From an uncultured Ruminococcus sp. (GTDB lineage: Bacteria > Bacillota > Clostridia > Oscillospirales > Ruminococcaceae): a stretch of DNA of 64,000 nt. The stretch lies in contig CAYOAV010000003.1 in NCBI GenBank assembly GCA_964402055.1, positions 5,900 through 69,899 of the forward strand, given 5' to 3'. Positions 56,093 through 64,000 of the stretch are shown piece by piece (position 1 is the first letter of the stretch; each line of letters opens with the position of its first letter). Position numbers and translations under genes: made by a program. The notes below the pieces were generated by a model that was not told the DNA's origin, made no database searches, and saw nothing but the letters and a program-made list of their open reading frames with translations.

Positions 56093-56953
56093 TTAATCAT
56101 TCTTCATTTCATCGCTTATCTTATCATATAAGCCGACGCTTTCCGCAATTTTACAATAATACTGTTTAAAGCCCTCAATATCGGAAAGATTTGAGATAAG
56201 TGCTTTTTTATACATTTCACTGCTTGCGGCAAGCTGCTTCATTCCAAGAAGAGCAAGCGAACAGCCGCCAAGTGCAAAAACAGTATTTTTATGTTCAATA
56301 ACAGATTTTTCAAACCAAGTCAATGCTTCATCATAATCGCCTTTTGCAAGATAGCACATTCCGTAATCGGTATAAATAAAATCAAAACGTGCATTTGTTT
56401 CCATAAGGTTATCATATATCTCAATTGCTTTATCATAGGAACGTGTTTCAACATAGCATCTTGCAAGCAGGACATCAACTGTTCTTGTTCTATCCTCAAC
56501 ACCAAGCTCGATAGCTTCACGGAAATAATTTATCGCATTGGTATCATATCCCATAAGGCGATAGGAATTTCCAAGATAAAAATCCACAACAGCCCTTTCC
56601 CTGTCAGTAAGCTCCAGCTCAAGTATATCCTTGAAATACTCAACAGAATCTGCAATTTCGCCGCATCTTACGCACTCCATACCCTCGCTGAAAAGACGTG
56701 CTTTTTTTGAAAAGCCTTTAAAAAGATCTCTTGCTATGTAGTGATCCATACCACGTCTTAACGCTTCCTTTGAGCTGTCATATGCAGTCACGACAGCCGC
56801 ACCTGCGACTGCTATTTCAGAAATAATAAAATAAAATATTCTCAAAACGCTATCAAATTCTATTGCAAAGAACGGATAGCATAAAAGCAGCATTATTGGA
56901 AAGACATTCAACAAATTACGCTTCACTTTTTTAAAGAAAAACCAACGATCCAT
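56093..56953 (-). CDS. Membrane-anchored TPR-repeat protein
   Basis: About 286 aa from the ATG at 56953. Two N-terminal TM segments are followed by several TPR-like repeats (GNSYRLMGYDTNAINYFREAIEL; YGMCYLAKGDYDEALTWFEKS). Confidence 0.55.
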   Translation of the reverse strand: MDRWFFFKKVKRNLLNVFPIMLLLCYPFFAIEFDSVLRIFYFIISEIAVAGAAVVTAYDSSKEALRRGMDHYIARDLFKGFSKKARLFSEGMECVRCGEIADSVEYFKDILELELTDRERAVVDFYLGNSYRLMGYDTNAINYFREAIELGVEDRTRTVDVLLARCYVETRSYDKAIEIYDNLMETNARFDFIYTDYGMCYLAKGDYDEALTWFEKSVIEHKNTVFALGGCSLALLGMKQLAASSEMYKKALISNLSDIEGFKQYYCKIAESVGLYDKISDEMKND

Positions 56954-56984
56954 CAAAAACTTCCTGACTTTTTAAAATAAAAAA

Positions 56985-57110
56985 ATCCGATACATAGGTG
57001 TGCAGGCTTGCTGCGGCACACAGAGCGAACCGCTTAATGCTGCTCGGTTCCCCGCCTGACATGGTTCACGGTGTTCTGTTGCACAGGGCCCACACACCTA
57101 TATATCGGAT
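56985..57110 (-). ncRNA. ffs: Signal recognition particle RNA (short, 4.5S-like hairpin form)
   Basis: The minus strand forms one long hairpin, ATCCGATATATAGGTGTG...CACACCTATGTATCGGAT, followed by TTTTTTT. The apical region GAACCATGTCAGGCGGGGAACCGAGCAGCATTAAGCGG matches the conserved SRP domain IV motif (GTCAGG...GAAGCAGC). It lies upstream of dnaX as in Firmicutes. Ends are approximate. Confidence 0.82.
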
Positions 57111-57179
57111 AATTCCAATCTACAGATAAACGTTATACACCAAACAGCATATTCACTCCTCCGTTTGGCTTACTTGAAC

Positions 57180-57208
57180 ATAATATCATAATTCACAAAA
57201 AAAGTCAA
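57180..57208 (-). promoter_or_regulatory. Candidate promoter for the SRP RNA (TTGACT-17 nt-TATTAT)
   Basis: The minus strand has TTGACT (57208-57203), a 17-nt spacer and TATTAT (57185-57180). This implies a 5-prime leader of about 60 nt before the SRP hairpin. Confidence 0.35.
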
Positions 57209-57361
57209 GCACTTTTATAAATTTTTACGATTTTAAAATCCTGCACAAGTTTATTAAAGCTTTTTTGTGCATTTTTTAATGCGAATTTAGCAAAAATAAA
57301 CAGTCAGATGTGCTATATTTTCACTATTTATACAGAAAATTTTTTCTATTAAAAATTACTA

Positions 57362-57390
57362 TTGAAATTTTTGGGGCAATGAGTTAAAAT
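57362..57390 (+). promoter_or_regulatory. Candidate promoter for the mcrBC-like operon (TTGAAA-17 nt-TAAAAT)
   Basis: TTGAAA at 57362-57367 and TAAAAT at 57385-57390, in a very AT-rich ORF-free stretch of about 400 nt. Confidence 0.35.
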
Positions 57391-57533
57391 ATTAAGTGTG
57401 TATGTTAAACGTTTTCTGTATCATTATCATACCGAATACACATTATCAAAAACTATAAAACTATTTATGCCATAAAATGGTATAAACCAAAATTGACAAA
57501 AACATTTATAGGAAGAAAGGAATTTTCATAGCT

Positions 57534-58541
57534 ATGGGTTCAAATATCATTCTTTACGGCCCTCCGGGAACAGGTAAAACCTATAATACAATCGCTTATG
57601 CGATATCTATTATCTACGGCAGACCTATCCGTGAGGTTATGAGTGAGGATTACGGAGAGCTTCTTGAAAAATATAATGCTCTTAAAACGCTCTATGGTCA
57701 GATAGAATTCACCACCTTCCACCAGTCCTTTGGATACGAGGAATTTGTCGAGGGTATCAAGCCTGTTTTTATTCAGGTTATGAACGAAAAGGGCGAGCGT
57801 TCCCGTAAGGAAGAGATGGTTTACAAGGTAAATCAGGGTGTTTTCAAGCGTTTCTGTGATGAAGCCGCAAAAAATCCGGGCGAAAAATATGTATTCGTAA
57901 TAGATGAAATCAACCGAGGCAATGTTTCCAAGATATTCGGTGAAATGATCACTATTATCGAGCCTACAAAGCGTCTTGGGCAAGCAGAGGAAGCAACTGT
58001 TAAGCTTGCATATTCGCAGGAAGCATTCGGTGTGCCTGATAATGTTTACATAATCGGAACTATGAACACCGCCGACCGTTCGATCGCAATGCTTGACTCC
58101 GCTTTAAGGCGACGCTTTGACTTTGTTGAAATGATGCCAAATCCCGAGCTACTCCGAGGTGTTGTTATAGAGGGAATTGACGTTTGCGAGCTGATGTATA
58201 AAATCAATAAGCGTGTTGAGATACTTCTTGACAGAGATCATACCATAGGACATGCTTATTTTATGCCGCTGAGAAGCCGTCCAAGCCTTGCGGTGCTTGC
58301 ACATATATTCAAAAACTCAATCGTTCCCTTGCTTCAGGATTATTTTTACGATGATTATGAAAAGATCCGTCTTGTTCTCGGTGACGCTAACAAGGAAAAG
58401 AACGAGCAGTTTGTTGTAAAAACAGACGTTGATTATGCACAGATATTCGGTGCTAATGCAGAGCTTTACCTTGAAAATGACGATATTTATACGATAAACA
58501 ACGCCGCTTTCGGCAACATCAACGCATATCTTAAAATTTAA
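57534..58541 (+). CDS. mcrB: McrB-like AAA+ GTPase, core domain only (no N-terminal DNA-binding domain)
   Basis: 335 aa. Walker A GPPGTGKT is at residues 9-16. FHQSFGYEEFVEG, VIDEINRGNVSKIFGE, the McrB-specific GTMNTADRS and ALRRRF are collinear with the C-terminal GTPase half of E. coli McrB. Confidence 0.85.
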   Translation: MGSNIILYGPPGTGKTYNTIAYAISIIYGRPIREVMSEDYGELLEKYNALKTLYGQIEFTTFHQSFGYEEFVEGIKPVFIQVMNEKGERSRKEEMVYKVNQGVFKRFCDEAAKNPGEKYVFVIDEINRGNVSKIFGEMITIIEPTKRLGQAEEATVKLAYSQEAFGVPDNVYIIGTMNTADRSIAMLDSALRRRFDFVEMMPNPELLRGVVIEGIDVCELMYKINKRVEILLDRDHTIGHAYFMPLRSRPSLAVLAHIFKNSIVPLLQDYFYDDYEKIRLVLGDANKEKNEQFVVKTDVDYAQIFGANAELYLENDDIYTINNAAFGNINAYLKI

Positions 58542-58553
58542 GGATAAATTTCA

Positions 58554-59765
58554 ATGAATAAAGTAAAACGCTTTGTTATCACGGACGCTGATTCCTTTGT
58601 AAGAGGCGGCACATCTGACGATCCTCATATCATCCCGATTCCCGAGCATAATTTTGATCGTCTTGCCGATTTTACAGAAAATAACCGCTATCCTGTTATG
58701 CACGAAATACAGCTGCCCGATGGAAGAATGTCCATTCATCCTGCACGTTATGCAGGTATAATAACACTTCGTGACGGCACACAAATCGAGCTGATGCCGC
58801 AGATATCCGCTGATAAAAACGAAAATACTATCGTTTCAAAAATGCTGATTCTTCGTATGCTTGAAGCTATGATCGAAGTCCCTGTAAAAAGAGTAACCGA
58901 AAAATACTTCAAAAAAGAACAGCTGAATATATTCGAAATATGCGTCAGAATGTTTCTTGACGAGGTAGAAAACGTTGTAAGAGGCGGTCTGAAACAGACT
59001 TATGTTCCATACAGAGGAAATGAACCGTTTGTAAAAGGAAAAACGATTTATTCCGAACACGCTAAGAAAAATTATGCACATAAAGAAAAGTTTTTCGTTG
59101 AATACGATGTTTTCAGCATAAACCGTTCGGAAAATAAGCTTATAAAGACTACTCTCTCCGCACTTTCAAAGCTTTCCACAAACGGACTTAACCTTAAAAG
59201 GATAAGAACGTTACTAATGGATTTCGATGGAGTGGATTTTTCCACAAATCTTAAGCGTGATTTCAAAAATGTCGTTGACGACAGAAGCATGGCAAGATAT
59301 TCAAGAGCTATGGGTTGGTGCAGGCTTTTTCTCTTAAACAAGGGAACAACAGCTTTTTTTTGCGGTGGAAAGGTTGCTTATGCAATGCTCTTCCCAATTG
59401 ACAAGCTTTTTTGCGGCTGTATCGCTACAAGCCTTCGCCGTCAGATAGACCGCTCAAAATACAACTTCCTGACCCCTGAAAAAATGACAAATTCTGTCAA
59501 CAACGTTTCACTCGACCTTAATATGGAGCCTGTTTCCAATTTTTATGTTAAAAACAAGCAGGACGATTCATATATAAATATTATATTCAAATTCTACGAT
59601 TTCAAGAGCTATCACGGAAAGGATACAGACGATACTGCTGTTGTTTTTCCCGTTACAGAGGTTCTAAATCGTGAGCTTGAAGGATTGCAAAAGAACATGT
59701 ATCTTGTCGATTTAAAGGATATTGACGGAAGCGTTTCAATATTAAACGAAACCTTCTTTTTGTAA
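58554..59765 (+). CDS. mcrC: McrC-like partner protein with an apparently degenerate nuclease region
   Basis: 403 aa, 12 nt downstream of mcrB. McrC-typical N-terminal and central segments are present (IPIPEHNF, YAGIITLRDGTQIELMPQI, NKLIKTTLSAL, LFPIDKLF). The C-terminal PD-(D/E)xK positions are not recognisable (MEPV..., IIFKFYD). Confidence 0.72.
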   Translation: MNKVKRFVITDADSFVRGGTSDDPHIIPIPEHNFDRLADFTENNRYPVMHEIQLPDGRMSIHPARYAGIITLRDGTQIELMPQISADKNENTIVSKMLILRMLEAMIEVPVKRVTEKYFKKEQLNIFEICVRMFLDEVENVVRGGLKQTYVPYRGNEPFVKGKTIYSEHAKKNYAHKEKFFVEYDVFSINRSENKLIKTTLSALSKLSTNGLNLKRIRTLLMDFDGVDFSTNLKRDFKNVVDDRSMARYSRAMGWCRLFLLNKGTTAFFCGGKVAYAMLFPIDKLFCGCIATSLRRQIDRSKYNFLTPEKMTNSVNNVSLDLNMEPVSNFYVKNKQDDSYINIIFKFYDFKSYHGKDTDDTAVVFPVTEVLNRELEGLQKNMYLVDLKDIDGSVSILNETFFL

Positions 59766-59779
59766 ATTTTATGTGTTTT

Positions 59780-59803
59780 ACCGCTCTTCGGAGCGGTTTT
59801 TTT
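59780..59803 (+). terminator. Intrinsic terminator of the mcrBC-like operon
   Basis: ACCGCTC-TTCG-GAGCGGT followed by TTTTTTT, 15 nt after the mcrC stop. Confidence 0.85.
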
Positions 59804-59823
59804 CTGTTTTTTTCAAATAACTA

Positions 59824-59852
59824 TTGCATTTTTTTCAAAAAAAGTGTATAAT
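59824..59852 (+). promoter_or_regulatory. Candidate sigma-A promoter (TTGCAT-17 nt-TATAAT) preceding a non-coding stretch of about 260 nt
   Basis: TTGCAT at 59824-59829, a 17-nt spacer and TATAAT at 59847-59852. Confidence 0.5.
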
Positions 59853-60114
59853 GAATTAAAGTATCTATGTAAAATATACTAAACACCATTTAAATCGGAA
59901 AAAATCAAGCCGACAATCTCGGATATATTGGATTTTGGCACAAATTTTTCCTGTATTCTGATGGTATTTAGTATCAGGAAGCAACCGATTAAAGTAAAGC
60001 GTTCGTTTCGTCATTTTGAAAATGTACGAATTTACGTCTTTGAGTACATTTTGAAAAACGACAGAAACATATTAATCAGCGGTTCCTTAGATACTTTTGA
60101 AAGGATATGATGCT

Positions 60115-60306
60115 ATGAACGAATATTCAGAAAAAAATTCATCCGATATCCTGCATATACTTTTATGGGTAACAGGTATATTGTCATTTATTCTCGGATT
60201 TGTCCTCGGCGTATGCTCTTGGAAAAAGCTGGATAAGCTCCGCAATAAGCATAACAACGAAAAATTTGACGCTGACGAATATATCCGCAGTCTTAATCTT
60301 GAATAA
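60115..60306 (+). CDS. Small membrane protein (63 aa), function unknown
   Basis: The ATG at 60115 lies 9 nt after AAAGGA. There is one TM segment (ILHILLWVTGILSFILGFVLGVC) and a charged tail. It lies immediately upstream of ychF. Confidence 0.45.
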   Translation: MNEYSEKNSSDILHILLWVTGILSFILGFVLGVCSWKKLDKLRNKHNNEKFDADEYIRSLNLE

Positions 60307-60328
60307 AATAAAAAAGGAATTATGAAAT

Positions 60329-61423
60329 ATGAAGCTTGGTATGGTTGGTCTTCCGAATGTCGGAAAAAGTACACTTTTTAACGCACTCACAAACGCAGGT
60401 GCAGAATCCGCTAACTACCCTTTCTGCACAATTGAACCAAATGTCGGAGTTGTTTCCGTTCCCGATGAGCGTCTTTTGAAGCTCAAGGAAATGTATGAGC
60501 CGAATAAATTTACCCCTGCAACTCTTGAATTTGTTGATATTGCAGGTCTTGTAAAGGGTGCTTCAAAGGGTGAAGGTCTTGGAAATAAATTCCTTGCAAA
60601 TATCCGTGAGGTTGATGCTATCGTTCACGTTGTACGTTGCTTTGAAGGTACGGACGTTATTCACGTTGATGGTAATATCAACCCGAGAAGAGATATCGAA
60701 ACAATAGACCTTGAGCTTATTTTCTCGGATATTGAAATGCTCGACAGAAGAATCGACCGCACTAAAAAGCTTGTCAAGGGTGATAAAAAATATATCGCTG
60801 AAGTGGAATTTCTTGAAAAGCTTAAGGCTCACCTTGAAGCAGGTCACTCCGCACGTTCCTTTGACTTCACCGAGGAAGAAGCAGAAGCAATTAAAAGCAC
60901 TCCCCTCCTCTCTGCGAAGCCTGTAATTTTTGCGGCCAACCTCTCCGAGGAGGATTTCAAAAATAATATTGAAAATTCTGTGCATTATAAAACGGTGTGC
61001 GAAATAGCCGCAGAAGAAAAGGCATCCGTTTTCCCGATATGTGCTCAGCTTGAAGCCGAAATATCCGATATGGGCGACGAGGACAAGGCAATGTTTCTTT
61101 CCGAGCTTGGTCTTGAAGTTTCGGGGCTTGACAGAATAATCAAGGAGGGTTATGCTCTGCTTGGTCTTATCTCATTCCTTACAGCAGGTAAGGACGAAGT
61201 AAGAGCATGGACTATCACCAACGGCACAAAAGCTCCCAAAGCCGCAGGTAAAATACATACCGATTTTGAAAAGGGCTTTATCAGAGCAGAGGTTGTTTCC
61301 TTTGAGGATCTTATGGCTTGCGGAACAATGGCTGCTGCAAAAGAAAAGGGGCTTGTACGTCTTGAAGGAAAGGAATATGTTGTCCGTGACGGAGATATTG
61401 TTCTTTTTCGCTTTAATGTATGA
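60329..61423 (+). CDS. ychF: Redox-regulated ATPase YchF
   Basis: 364 aa with [25 protein letters not shown] and a C-terminal TGS-like domain (FIRAEV...). Confidence 0.95.
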
Positions 61424-61512
61424 TCGTAATGGGCAGTGTCCCTTATGATAGATAAACGAAAAACCGCCGAAAATAAGGTTTTTCAACAATATTTTTATTG
61501 GAGGAAATAAGA

Positions 61513-62985
61513 ATGAACACAAAAAAGATGCTCGCCGCAGTTATGGCACTCACCATGACAGCTGCACTCACCGCTTGTGGCGGAGATGACAGCAGCAGCA
61601 CTAATGACGGAGGTGAAACCACTACTACTACAGAAGCAACCACCACTACCGCAAAGACTGTTGCAATTAACACCGAAGGACTTAAGGATGATGAGCAGAC
61701 TGCTCTTGAAGGAGTTATGGAACAGCTCCAGGACGTTGATCTTGAAAACAAGACTGTTACCTACCTTGGACAGACAGATATCAACCCTTCAACTGACGGT
61801 GCAAGTAAATCTGTTGGACTTGAAATGTTCGAACAGAAATACGGCGGAAACATCGCATACATTCCTACAACCTGGGAAGACCGTTTTGATAACCTTTCCA
61901 CTCAGATCCTCAGCGGCGGCGGAGTTGATCTTTTTGATGGTGCAGATACTTCCAACTTCCCTAAGGGAATTATAAGCGGTATGTTCCAGCCTATCGATGA
62001 TTATATTGATATCAATTCTGCTATCTGGCAGAATGTTTCACAGGGACTTGAAATGTTTAAGTTCGGTGGTAAGCACTATGAATTCGTAACATCTGTATCA
62101 GCTGAACAGTTTGTTATTTATGATAAGTCTACTATCGAAGCATTCGGCTTTGATGATCCATGGGAGCTTTATGAAAAGGGCGAATGGAACTGGGATAGCT
62201 TCAAGTCAATGCTCTATGAGTTCGTTGATCCTGATGCTGATCAGTATGGTCTTGACGGCTGGTGGAACGAAAAGTCCCTCTTTATGTCCGCAGGCGTTCC
62301 TCTCGTTGGTCTTAGCGAAGACGGCGGTATCCAGAGCAATATTTACGATGCAACCGTTGAAAAGGCTATGAACTTCCAGTATGAGCTTAATCAGAATGGA
62401 TGCAGATTCCCAATGGCTGAATTCAGCTGGAGCGAGCATCCTGAATACCTCGGCGAAGGCAAGGAATTGTTCTACATAATCGGTGAATGGGGCTTCAAAG
62501 GCGATCCTTCAACATGGAGAGCTGCAGTATCTTCACCTGAAAATCTTGGTATCGCACCTGTTCCTTCCCCTGCTGGTTCTGATCCTTATCAGAGCGTATC
62601 TCTTACTGGTTATGCTCTCTGTAAGGGTGCTGCTAACCCTGAGGGTGCTGCTCTCTTCGCTGAATGCGAAACACTCTCTAAGGTTGATCCTGATACTATT
62701 GCTATTTCCGATAGAAAGGCTCTTGATGATAACCAGTGGACACAGGAAACACTTGACAAGGTTAAGGCAATTCACGAGCTTGCAAGACAGTACCCTGTTA
62801 TTGACTACTCCACAGGTTCATCCTCCGATATTGCTTCACTTACAACAGACGGCGGCGATGAAATGGGTATGAGATCTGCACTTTATGGTATTGAATGGGC
62901 TACGATGAAGGATCAGATCGGCGATACAGTTGAACTTCTCGTTGCTGAAGTTAATGAAAAGCTCCAGGCTGCTATTGCTGAATAA
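61513..62985 (+). CDS. ABC transporter extracellular solute-binding lipoprotein (sugar-type, family 1-like)
   Basis: The ATG at 61513 has a GGAGGA SD. The lipoprotein signal is MNTKKMLAAVMALTMTAALTACGG, followed by a Thr-rich linker and a large SBP body. Confidence 0.78.
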   Translation: MNTKKMLAAVMALTMTAALTACGGDDSSSTNDGGETTTTTEATTTTAKTVAINTEGLKDDEQTALEGVMEQLQDVDLENKTVTYLGQTDINPSTDGASKSVGLEMFEQKYGGNIAYIPTTWEDRFDNLSTQILSGGGVDLFDGADTSNFPKGIISGMFQPIDDYIDINSAIWQNVSQGLEMFKFGGKHYEFVTSVSAEQFVIYDKSTIEAFGFDDPWELYEKGEWNWDSFKSMLYEFVDPDADQYGLDGWWNEKSLFMSAGVPLVGLSEDGGIQSNIYDATVEKAMNFQYELNQNGCRFPMAEFSWSEHPEYLGEGKELFYIIGEWGFKGDPSTWRAAVSSPENLGIAPVPSPAGSDPYQSVSLTGYALCKGAANPEGAALFAECETLSKVDPDTIAISDRKALDDNQWTQETLDKVKAIHELARQYPVIDYSTGSSSDIASLTTDGGDEMGMRSALYGIEWATMKDQIGDTVELLVAEVNEKLQAAIAE

Positions 62986-63025
62986 TTTGTGATATTTCAG
63001 AATAATAATATTGGAGAAAAATAGA

Positions 63026-64000
63026 ATGAACACAAAAAAGATGCTTGCCGCAGTTATGGCACTCTCCATGACAGCTGCTCTTACCGCCTGTGGCGATAAT
63101 GGCGGCAGCACAAATGACGGCGACGCTACAACAACTACAGAAGCAACCACAACCACAGGTGTTACTGTAGAAGTAAACACCGAGGAGCTTAAAGATGAGG
63201 AGCAGGAAGCTCTCAACACTGTTATGGATCAGCTTCAGGATGTGGAACTTGAAAACAAGGAAATCAAGTGGTTTGCTAACTACGATCTTAACCCTACAAC
63301 CAACGGTGCTTCAAAAAAGGTTGAGGTTGAAATGTTCGAGCAGAAGTACGGCGGTACTATCAAGTACTATCCTACTGAATGGGCTGACAGATATGACAAG
63401 CTTTCTACATATCTTCTCGGCGGCGAAGGCATTGACTTCTACCCTGGCAACGATGCAAACAATCTACCGAGCGGTATCGTAAAGGGTATGTTCCAACCTG
63501 TTGATGATTATATCGACCTTGATTCTGCAATCTGGCAGAATGTTTCAAATGCAATGGAGCTTTACAACTTCGGTGGTAAGCACTGGACATTCGTAACAGC
63601 TGTTACACCTGAACAGGTACTCATCTACAACAAGGAAACAATTGAATCAAACGGTCTTGACGATCCTTGGGAGCTTTATGAGGCAGGCAACTGGAACTGG
63701 GAAACATTCAAGTCTATGCTTCTTGAATTCGTTGATCCTGATGCTGATCAGTACGGCCTTGACAACTGGTTCAATGAAAAGGCTCTTCACCTCTCCGCAG
63801 GCGTTCCCACAGTTTCCGCAGTTGACGGTCACGTTGTATGTAACATCAATGATCCTACAATTGAAAAGGCTATGAATTTCCAGTATGAGCTTTATCAGAA
63901 TGGACTTGTTCTTAACACAGAGCTTTTCAACTGGTCTATCCAGCCTCAGTTTATGGGTGAAGGCAAAGAGCTTTTCTGGCTTAACGGTACATGGGGAATT
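63026..64000 (+). CDS. Paralogous solute-binding lipoprotein, 5-prime part (runs off the right edge of the window)
   Basis: Absent from the ORF track because it has no stop in the window. Translation from the ATG at 63026 is open to 64000: MNTKKMLAAVMALSMTAALTACGDNGG...KYGGTIKYYPTEWADRYDKL...DPWELYEAGNWNWETFKSML, collinear with the preceding gene. Confidence 0.8.
   Translation, partial: MNTKKMLAAVMALSMTAALTACGDNGGSTNDGDATTTTEATTTTGVTVEVNTEELKDEEQEALNTVMDQLQDVELENKEIKWFANYDLNPTTNGASKKVEVEMFEQKYGGTIKYYPTEWADRYDKLSTYLLGGEGIDFYPGNDANNLPSGIVKGMFQPVDDYIDLDSAIWQNVSNAMELYNFGGKHWTFVTAVTPEQVLIYNKETIESNGLDDPWELYEAGNWNWETFKSMLLEFVDPDADQYGLDNWFNEKALHLSAGVPTVSAVDGHVVCNINDPTIEKAMNFQYELYQNGLVLNTELFNWSIQPQFMGEGKELFWLNGTWGI

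Follow-up and report, generated by a model that had tools for sequence, protein, structure and literature searches.

A McrBC-derived gene pair, apparently without reader and nuclease modules, conserved among housekeeping genes of uncultured gut Ruminococcus and relatives

We analysed a 64,000-nucleotide (nt) stretch of DNA from an uncultured Ruminococcus sp. (assembly GCA_964402055.1, contig CAYOAV010000003.1, positions 5,900 to 69,899; hereafter the window), in which a tandem pair of genes related to mcrB and mcrC is found near one end. McrBC is the textbook example of a nuclease that is driven by a motor and depends on DNA modification, but the pair in the window appears to lack both the module that reads modified DNA and the module that cuts it, and so is probably not a self-contained restriction enzyme. 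Yet the two genes are intact in about 50 species, they evolve under purifying selection of the strength seen in housekeeping genes, and they sit at stable positions among such genes. We consider it probable that they form a McrBC-derived operon that either has been exapted beyond modification-dependent restriction or relies on partners encoded elsewhere. It is likewise probable, as part of the same explanation, that the pair has been passed on by vertical descent in a single lineage of uncultured gut Ruminococcus/Oscillospiraceae.

A first-pass annotation, made from the letters of this DNA, had already described the pair as a non-canonical McrBC without a reader or an obvious nuclease, and this description is supported by our profile searches, alignments and AlphaFold2 (AF2) models. 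It had offered three options for how such a system might work. A non-restriction role and a partner supplied in trans are the two that our results favour, while an alternative catalytic arrangement is disfavoured.

RESULTS

The McrB-like protein is a bare AAA+ core

The mcrB-like gene (coordinates of all features are collected in Table 1) encodes a protein of 335 amino acids (aa) with the N-terminus MGSNIILYGPPGTGKT, which begins 8 residues before the Walker A motif. An in-frame TAA stop lies 17 codons 5′ of the ATG, with no start codon in between. The protein matches Pfam AAA_5 (1e-15) and, over residues 57–277, the NCBIfam profile for McrB (9e-42); among sequences in the PDB it matches the AAA+ domain of Thermococcus gammatolerans McrB (TgMcrB; 1.7e-56) and Escherichia coli McrB (EcMcrB; 5e-42). 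The AF2 model (predicted local distance difference test score, pLDDT, of 88) has strand β1 (residues 4–9) as its first element, and in a Foldseek search it matched the AAA+ domains of TgMcrB (1e-23) and EcMcrB (7e-22) and also the R2 motor of BsuMI (9a5m_B). With PADLOC, only partial matches to type II restriction enzyme and AAA models were obtained for McrB, and none for McrC. Thus, translation, the upstream stop and the start of the model at β1 all agree with the earlier description of a McrB that starts at its Walker A motif and has no DNA-recognition domain.

We also find no sign of a reader at another place in either protein. Neither the AF2 models nor the alignments revealed an additional DNA-binding domain in McrB or in the N-terminus of McrC. 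The longest helix predicted in McrB has 19 residues, and the C-terminal 45 residues of the protein are also present in McrBs that carry a reader, and do not represent a concealed reader. The N-terminus of McrC is the ordinary scaffold of its canonical relatives. A small DNA-binding domain concealed in one of the two proteins, the finding that would have made this an ordinary type IV system, is therefore not apparent.

Alignment with EcMcrB and with closer relatives shows that the N-linker, the approximately 20–40 residues ahead of β1, is missing together with the reader. In canonical McrB, the N-linker makes the guanine-specificity contacts (preprint 10.64898/2026.08.31.748284). Because the N-linker is absent, the statement that this protein keeps all GTPase hallmarks was slightly too strong: Walker A, Walker B, the MNTADRS loop and the three arginines are present, but the element that contributes guanine specificity is not. 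Guanine specificity may well have been lost from a protein whose hydrolytic machinery is complete.

The window McrB also differs in the β-hairpin of the helix-2 insert: compared with the nearest canonical McrBs, the hairpin is extended by 4 aa and is basic instead of acidic. In TgMcrB, Phe260 and Tyr272 encircle the tip of the McrC finger (PMC7680126). If F71 and Y97, which flank the hairpin of the window protein, are taken as their equivalents, the hairpin would sit at the pore, and, more speculatively, the basic tips could form a positively charged ring by the finger tip. In relatives such as P0153, a whole domain is inserted slightly downstream of this hairpin.

The McrC-like protein keeps the scaffold and finger but has lost catalytic residues

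The mcrC-like gene follows after 12 nt, and both open reading frames (ORFs) are intact; their coordinates and spacing are those of the first-pass annotation. The Pfam McrBC family (PF10117) matches the 403-aa protein with an E-value of 3e-47, but over residues 64–301 only, which correspond to profile positions 4–235 of 318, whereas the canonical relative P0095, with 36% identity, covers positions 2–318. In a search of PDB sequences, only residues 74–261 align to T. gammatolerans McrC (TgMcrC). The AF2 model of McrC (pLDDT 87, predicted template modelling score 0.84) matched full-length TgMcrC in Foldseek (1e-15, template modelling (TM) score 0.67), and E. coli McrC (EcMcrC) was also matched.

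The part of McrC that is expected to engage the motor is well preserved. The N-terminal scaffold and the finger are conserved, and the NEPFVKGK loop (residues 156–163) holds residues that are invariant even in the comparison with canonical McrCs. Arg244 stands opposite EcMcrC Lys157 in the alignment and opposite TgMcrC Arg263 in an ungapped HMMER block, and position 244 is Arg in each of the 47 McrCs of the family described below. It is this Arg263 (Lys157 in EcMcrC) that enters the McrB active site and boosts GTP hydrolysis (PMC7680126).

The C-terminal PD-(D/E)xK domain, by contrast, is degenerate. We took the catalytic residues D244, D257 and K259 directly from the E. coli K-12 gene (METD...DAK), and located their columns in an L-INS-i alignment of the 47 family McrCs, 15 canonical McrCs and EcMcrC. 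The window protein has N329, N342 and I344 in these three columns. Across the family, the D244 column holds 24 Asp, 20 Asn, 2 Ser and 1 Thr, the D257 column is Asn in 44 of the 47 members, and the K259 column is occupied by Arg (25), Ile (13), Val (5), Lys (2) and other residues (2). No family member has Asp or Glu anywhere in strand β3, in either of the two possible registers, and thus the equivalent of D257 is gone. The L-INS-i register is backed by F345, which falls opposite the Trp of the canonical DTKWK motif, and in the window McrC both acidic positions are lost whichever β3 register is chosen. In addition, an 18-residue gap in the alignment takes out the QxxxY helix (S..D.YQMYAY). The domain has a mean length of 138 aa in the family compared to 165 aa in canonical relatives, so that the true shortening is about 20–27 aa and not the 40 aa or so that had been estimated by eye.

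The proposal that the nuclease residues are lost therefore holds, and neither the profile search nor the multiple alignments nor the AF2 model allows a catalytic Asp/Asp(Glu)/Lys set to be placed in this domain. The predicted order of secondary structure elements is kept (helix 282–297, strands 329–334, 340–345, 361–367 and 382–386, helix 387–402). When the C-terminal domain alone was used to search 1.84 billion representative proteins, there were three matches at E ≤ 0.001, namely two proteins of 404 aa, of which one belongs to the family (P0084), and a fragment of 80 aa; canonical McrCs were not among them. The net charge of the domain is about zero in the family and in canonical McrCs alike, which provides no argument either way on nucleic-acid binding. 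The pattern of replacements suggests that nuclease activity is absent from this McrC.

The pair is constant in architecture and under strong purifying selection

A word-index search with the window McrC yielded approximately 94 clusters of 401–411 aa at 45–96% identity and full coverage. The clusters with a named source all come from metagenome-assembled genomes (MAGs) of Oscillospiraceae, and a scan of GTDB species representatives located a family McrC at 51 species loci. All family genomes are MAGs; they are assigned to uncultured Ruminococcus sp., Oscillospiraceae and Clostridia, and originate from the guts of humans, rabbits, goats, deer, mice, chickens and termites. One MAG is labelled Prevotella sp. 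(L056, JAMPIC010000010.1), while all other loci are from Ruminococcus, Oscillospiraceae or Clostridia; this label is probably due to a binning error rather than to horizontal transfer.

Wherever the contig permits, a family McrB of 335–339 homologous residues is found 2–36 nt upstream of mcrC, with a distance of 380 nt at one locus. Homology of the McrBs starts at MG[SA]N[IL]ILYGPPGTGK in 50 loci, and longer ORF calls reflect upstream starts that are not conserved. A 366-aa McrB call in a relative of the window (L014) was rejected as such an artefact, since the additional N-terminal residues are not conserved and the MGSN start is preceded by a good ribosome-binding site. In a lineage whose McrC is 45% identical to that of the window (L006, JGI 3300042599), the two genes are separated by an inserted HicA-HicB toxin-antitoxin cassette (L006:81-673), with the C-terminus of McrB visible at L006:3-74. 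The 380-nt gap lies at the same place in a related Ruminococcus MAG (L058).

We estimated ratios of nonsynonymous to synonymous substitution (dN/dS) by the method of Nei and Gojobori, with a 95%-identical relative (L012) as the main reference. The ratio for mcrB is 0.005, at a dS of 0.50 and with fewer than 1% of residues changed. It is 0.011 for ybaB, 0.013 for ychF, 0.053 for dnaX and 0.22 for the neighbouring tetratricopeptide repeat (TPR) gene. The ratio for mcrC is 0.031, and that of its inactivated domain (residues 266–403) taken separately is 0.042; overall, mcrB values range from 0.005 to 0.05. Amino acid identity between the window and the more distant L014 is 96% for McrB, 90% for YchF, 87% for McrC and 71% for DnaX. 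Where the pair occupies its second chromosomal position (see below), McrB is 89–95% identical, compared to 75–86% for the flanking aminotransferase and 50–55% for the GHMP kinase. Thus, the pair is under purifying selection at the level of housekeeping genes, and this includes the domain that has lost its catalytic residues.

The pair occupies stable positions among housekeeping genes and has its own promoter

In the window, as in L012 and L014, the gene order is recR-ybaB-dnaX-TPR gene-signal recognition particle (SRP) RNA, then mcrB-mcrC, then a small ORF and ychF. In 30 of the 52 loci that we clustered, the pair is found at a second position, just downstream of genes for an aminotransferase and a GHMP kinase, and 16–19 of these 30 have a tpk-rsgA-pknB-pp2c-rlmN cluster downstream of the pair. 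In other lineages, the pair is beside glnA and rpsR-ssb-rpsF, or elsewhere. Across about 50 species, then, it is at two stable positions amid housekeeping genes and not in a variable immunity region or a mobile element.

A survey of the neighbourhood for a conserved third gene had been proposed, and we clustered all flanking ORFs of the 52 loci for this purpose. Besides mcrB and mcrC, no gene family is common to both synteny contexts; the remaining neighbours are lineage-specific housekeeping genes, and there is no nuclease among the common neighbours of the pair. No family members were found among IMG/VR and GenBank phages, nor among PLSDB plasmids, in which all matches are below 60% identity, annotated as McrC family and mostly restricted to the finger region. 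The 64-kb window contains no paralogue of either gene elsewhere; a weak AAA match at 988–2244 on the minus strand (E 3e-4) was disregarded.

A candidate promoter and a strong terminator had been noted around the pair, and both are indeed present. The promoter is conserved: in 40 of 48 species, mcrB is preceded at a distance of 68–172 nt by a TTGAAA-17 nt-TAAAAT element, and this holds for both synteny contexts and irrespective of the upstream gene. The sequence upstream of mcrB had also been described as free of ORFs, and this is correct in that no ORF of at least 50 aa occurs in 56957–57533 on either strand, but the SRP RNA gene further upstream has to be added to that description. This gene heads the minus-strand TPR-dnaX-ybaB(-recR) cluster. 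It is the sole Rfam match in positions 56800–60400; neither a leader nor a riboswitch was identified ahead of mcrB. The 5′ untranslated region of mcrB varies across loci, being 60–170 nt long and without an Rfam match.

The combination of losses differs from known relatives

Canonical McrBC of E. coli K-12 and T. gammatolerans resembles the window pair in its tandem mcrB-mcrC operon, in its AAA+ core with Walker A and B motifs, MNTADRS (NxxD) and RRR, and in a McrC with scaffold, finger and activating Arg/Lys and the same overall fold. It differs in having the reader and N-linker in McrB and the D/D/K residues and QxxxY helix in McrC, as well as in the genomic setting and the level of conservation. 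The NxxD form of the GTPase motif (N-T-A-D) places the window McrB in the canonical McrB clade and not in the NxD clade of the CoCoNuT systems (motif classes as in PMC11090510).

Each loss taken by itself has some precedent. CoCoNuTs of the iPD-(D/E)xK type contain a CnuC with a PD-(D/E)xK-like fold and inactivating replacements, in which the domain is presumably a binding module. However, CoCoNuTs have the NxD motif, long coiled-coils and, always adjacent, a HEPN or other nuclease (Bell et al. 2024, PMC11090510), whereas the window McrB is a bare 335-aa protein without coiled-coils and there is no adjacent nuclease at the loci examined. In the three-gene LlaI and BsuMI systems (R1 DNA binder, R2 motor, R3 nuclease), the R2 subunit resembles the window McrB in having neither a fused DNA-binding domain nor the N-linker, and it hydrolyses GTP, ATP, XTP and ITP (preprint 10.64898/2026.08.31.748284). 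These systems, however, have an adjacent R1, companion methyltransferases and an R3 with an active PD-(D/E)xK site, none of which occurs at loci of the window type, where only two genes are conserved.

E. coli itself makes a reader-less McrB core, McrB-S, from an internal start that is annotated in the K-12 record. McrB-S keeps approximately 40 residues before Walker A, including the N-linker, and occurs together with a full-length McrB and an active McrC, whereas in the family studied here the short McrB is the only form. A third example was found in our searches at L096:6001-8497, where the partner of a McrC of 448 aa is a 364-aa McrB without a reader (P0198), which shares 55% identity with the McrB of the window. 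The L096 McrC keeps PD...DTKWK...QVYVY and the pair sits among the housekeeping genes polA, upp and hisF. Such a pair could be an intermediate state. Given LlaI/BsuMI R2, McrB-S and P0198, loss of the reader alone is not unusual. The combination of reader and N-linker loss, an inactivated nuclease, no linked partner and core-genome behaviour is not described in the literature that we searched, which also contained nothing relevant on nuclease-dead McrC outside the CoCoNuTs or on McrBC in Oscillospiraceae.

MoxR-class AAA+/adaptor pairs such as NorQ/NorD and CbbQ/CbbO belong to the same AAA_5/helix-2-insert clade and gave weaker Foldseek matches. They are remodelling machines composed of a hexamer and an adaptor, and are not nucleolytic. 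The similarity is a functional analogy only, as the adaptor is a VWA protein and not a McrC, and sequence identity to the window protein is 13–14%; remodelling of proteins by the window pair is unsupported.

DISCUSSION

Proposed mode of action

Housekeeping-level constraint, core-genome positions, a conserved promoter, the lack of a conserved neighbour and absence from the phage and plasmid collections together argue for a role outside restriction or for a partner encoded at another locus. If the preserved parts of the pair work as they do in canonical McrBC, the operon would be driven from its own σA-type promoter, probably constitutively, and McrB would assemble as a nucleotide-dependent hexamer. 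The McrC finger would insert into this hexamer, with Arg244 stimulating NTP hydrolysis. In canonical complexes, the nuclease domains of McrC dimerise and thereby give tetradecamers (PMC7680126), and the inactivated domain may have been retained for binding or dimerisation. Fuelled by NTP, the complex would then run without cleaving DNA.

The specific form of this idea that we put forward, tentatively and at somewhat less than even chances, is that a McrBC motor has been domesticated. Expressed constitutively and passed on vertically, McrB6-McrC would neither cut DNA nor read its modification, and would serve a housekeeping or chromosome- or RNA-associated function outside immunity. Several observations weigh against our explanation of the pair. 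About half of the family (24 of 47) keeps Asp at the D244 position and D283 in helix α1 is conserved, so that a metal site of an unusual kind may exist in some members. The β3 register is uncertain by two residues, with MAFFT in its automatic mode placing a Lys (K346) in the K259 column. Furthermore, strong purifying selection and chromosomal stability are, by themselves, compatible with a role in defence.

Alternative explanations

The explanation that comes closest, although we regard it as unlikely, is that the pair is the motor and adaptor module of a defence system, with the reader and/or the nuclease effector encoded at an unlinked site in the genome, in a manner reminiscent of LlaI and BsuMI. 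A McrB without reader and N-linker that works with a separate DNA-binding subunit has a precedent in those systems, conservation of the finger and Arg244 means that the motor is probably functional, and the inactivated domain, being under selection, could be a docking site. However, no neighbour family is common to the two synteny contexts in about 50 species. The R1 gene of LlaI and BsuMI lies within the same operon, and known systems with an inactivated McrC always have an adjacent replacement nuclease (PMC11090510). The constraint on McrB and the fixed position of the pair also fit a core gene better than a mobile defence cassette.

We find it quite improbable that the pair constitutes a type IV restriction enzyme of the ordinary kind, with an active site that escaped us through misalignment or because its catalytic residues are arranged in a non-canonical way. 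Such an enzyme could draw on D283, E309, D386 and D391, all of which are conserved in the C-terminal domain, or, in 24 of 47 members, on the Asp at the first catalytic position, and the order of predicted helices and strands is kept. PD-(D/E)xK active sites can migrate. However, Asn takes the place of both acidic residues in the window McrC, β3 is free of acidic residues throughout the family, and the QxxxY helix is deleted. The PF10117 match stops at position 235 of 318 although the canonical relative matches in full, the C-terminal domain matches no canonical McrC among 1.84 billion representatives, and McrB, too, is without its reader domain.

Less probable still is a regulator or decoy that acts on a complete McrBC in the same cell. 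The analogy would be McrB-S, the reader-less form that E. coli makes naturally and that modulates restriction by sequestering McrC; an inactivated McrC and a reader-less McrB could similarly titrate active subunits. But no paralogue of McrB or McrC is present in the 64-kb window or in the flanks examined, and a dedicated two-gene decoy held at a dN/dS of 0.005 in about 50 species is hard to reconcile with a target system that is usually variable.

Finally, the absence of anything before β1 in McrB and of the nuclease motifs in McrC might point to a decaying remnant, with a 5′-truncated mcrB and a degenerating mcrC, but this is refuted, in line with the earlier remark that the pair does not look like simple decay, by ORFs that are intact and of constant length in about 50 species, by dN/dS values of 0.005–0.04 at a dS of 0.5–0.9 with the inactivated domain included, and by conservation of promoter and terminator.

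Implications

The McrC finger blocks the pore, which makes it difficult to see how the McrBC motor is coupled to DNA. That reader and nuclease have been lost while constraint exceeds that on YchF or DnaX suggests that selection acts on some activity of the McrB6-McrC core itself, and the pair may therefore offer a minimal system in which the motor-plus-finger module can be studied without cleavage. It is a candidate case of a defence system turned to a cellular function, and it would be a counter-example to the published rule that a replacement nuclease is always found beside an inactivated McrC. The label ‘McrBC restriction system’ that annotation pipelines give to such proteins is probably misleading, as they are unlikely to be restriction enzymes.

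Features of the window and other neighbouring genes

Table 1. Positions of the features discussed, numbered from the first nucleotide of the window
Feature	Position	Strand	Basis or remark
Bacterial small SRP RNA	56997-57095	-	Rfam RF00169, 68 bits, E 3e-14
Candidate σA-type promoter of the mcrB-mcrC operon, TTGAAA-17 nt-TAAAAT	57362-57390	+	Consensus scan, 10/12 matches
mcrB-like gene	57534-58541	+	335-aa AAA+ NTPase core, without N-terminal reader domain, without N-linker
Walker A GPPGTGKT, McrB residues 9-16	57558-57581	+	Direct translation; invariant in alignments
Extended helix-2-insert β-hairpin, McrB residues 73-101, basic tip NEKGERSRKEE	57750-57836	+	AF2 strands 73-83 and 89-101
Walker B D124-E125 (DEINRGN)	57903-57908	+	Translation; invariant in alignments
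McrB consensus loop MNTADRS, residues 177-183, NxxD type	58062-58082	+	Translation; invariant in alignments
R192-R193-R194 (RRRF), arginine finger/sensor region	58107-58115	+	Translation; invariant in alignments
mcrC-like gene	58554-59765	+	403 aa; scaffold, finger, degenerate PD-(D/E)xK domain
McrC Arg244, equivalent of TgMcrC Arg263/EcMcrC Lys157	59283-59285	+	Alignment
Degenerate PD-(D/E)xK domain, McrC residues 266-403	59349-59762	+	Alignments; QxxxY helix deleted
N329 (for EcMcrC D244)	59538-59540	+	Alignment
N342 (for EcMcrC D257)	59577-59579	+	Alignment
I344 (for EcMcrC K259)	59583-59585	+	Alignment
Intrinsic terminator, ACCGCTC-TTCG-GAGCGGT then TTTTTTT	59780-59807	+	Hairpin 59780-59797; 15 nt past the mcrC stop

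Between the mcrC terminator and ychF, the window has an ORF of 69 aa for which a membrane helix is predicted (60097–60306, plus strand). An ORF of similar size is found in that place in L002, L012 and L014, but is missing from the other synteny context, and it thus seems to be tied to ychF and not to mcrBC.

Further downstream, two tandem lipoprotein-like paralogues are encoded on the plus strand, at 61498–62985 and at about 63000–64000. Both have Thr-rich linkers (TTTTEATTTT) after the lipobox Cys, and the first is without a Pfam match. The ORFs called antisense to these genes are artefacts of the repetitive linkers.

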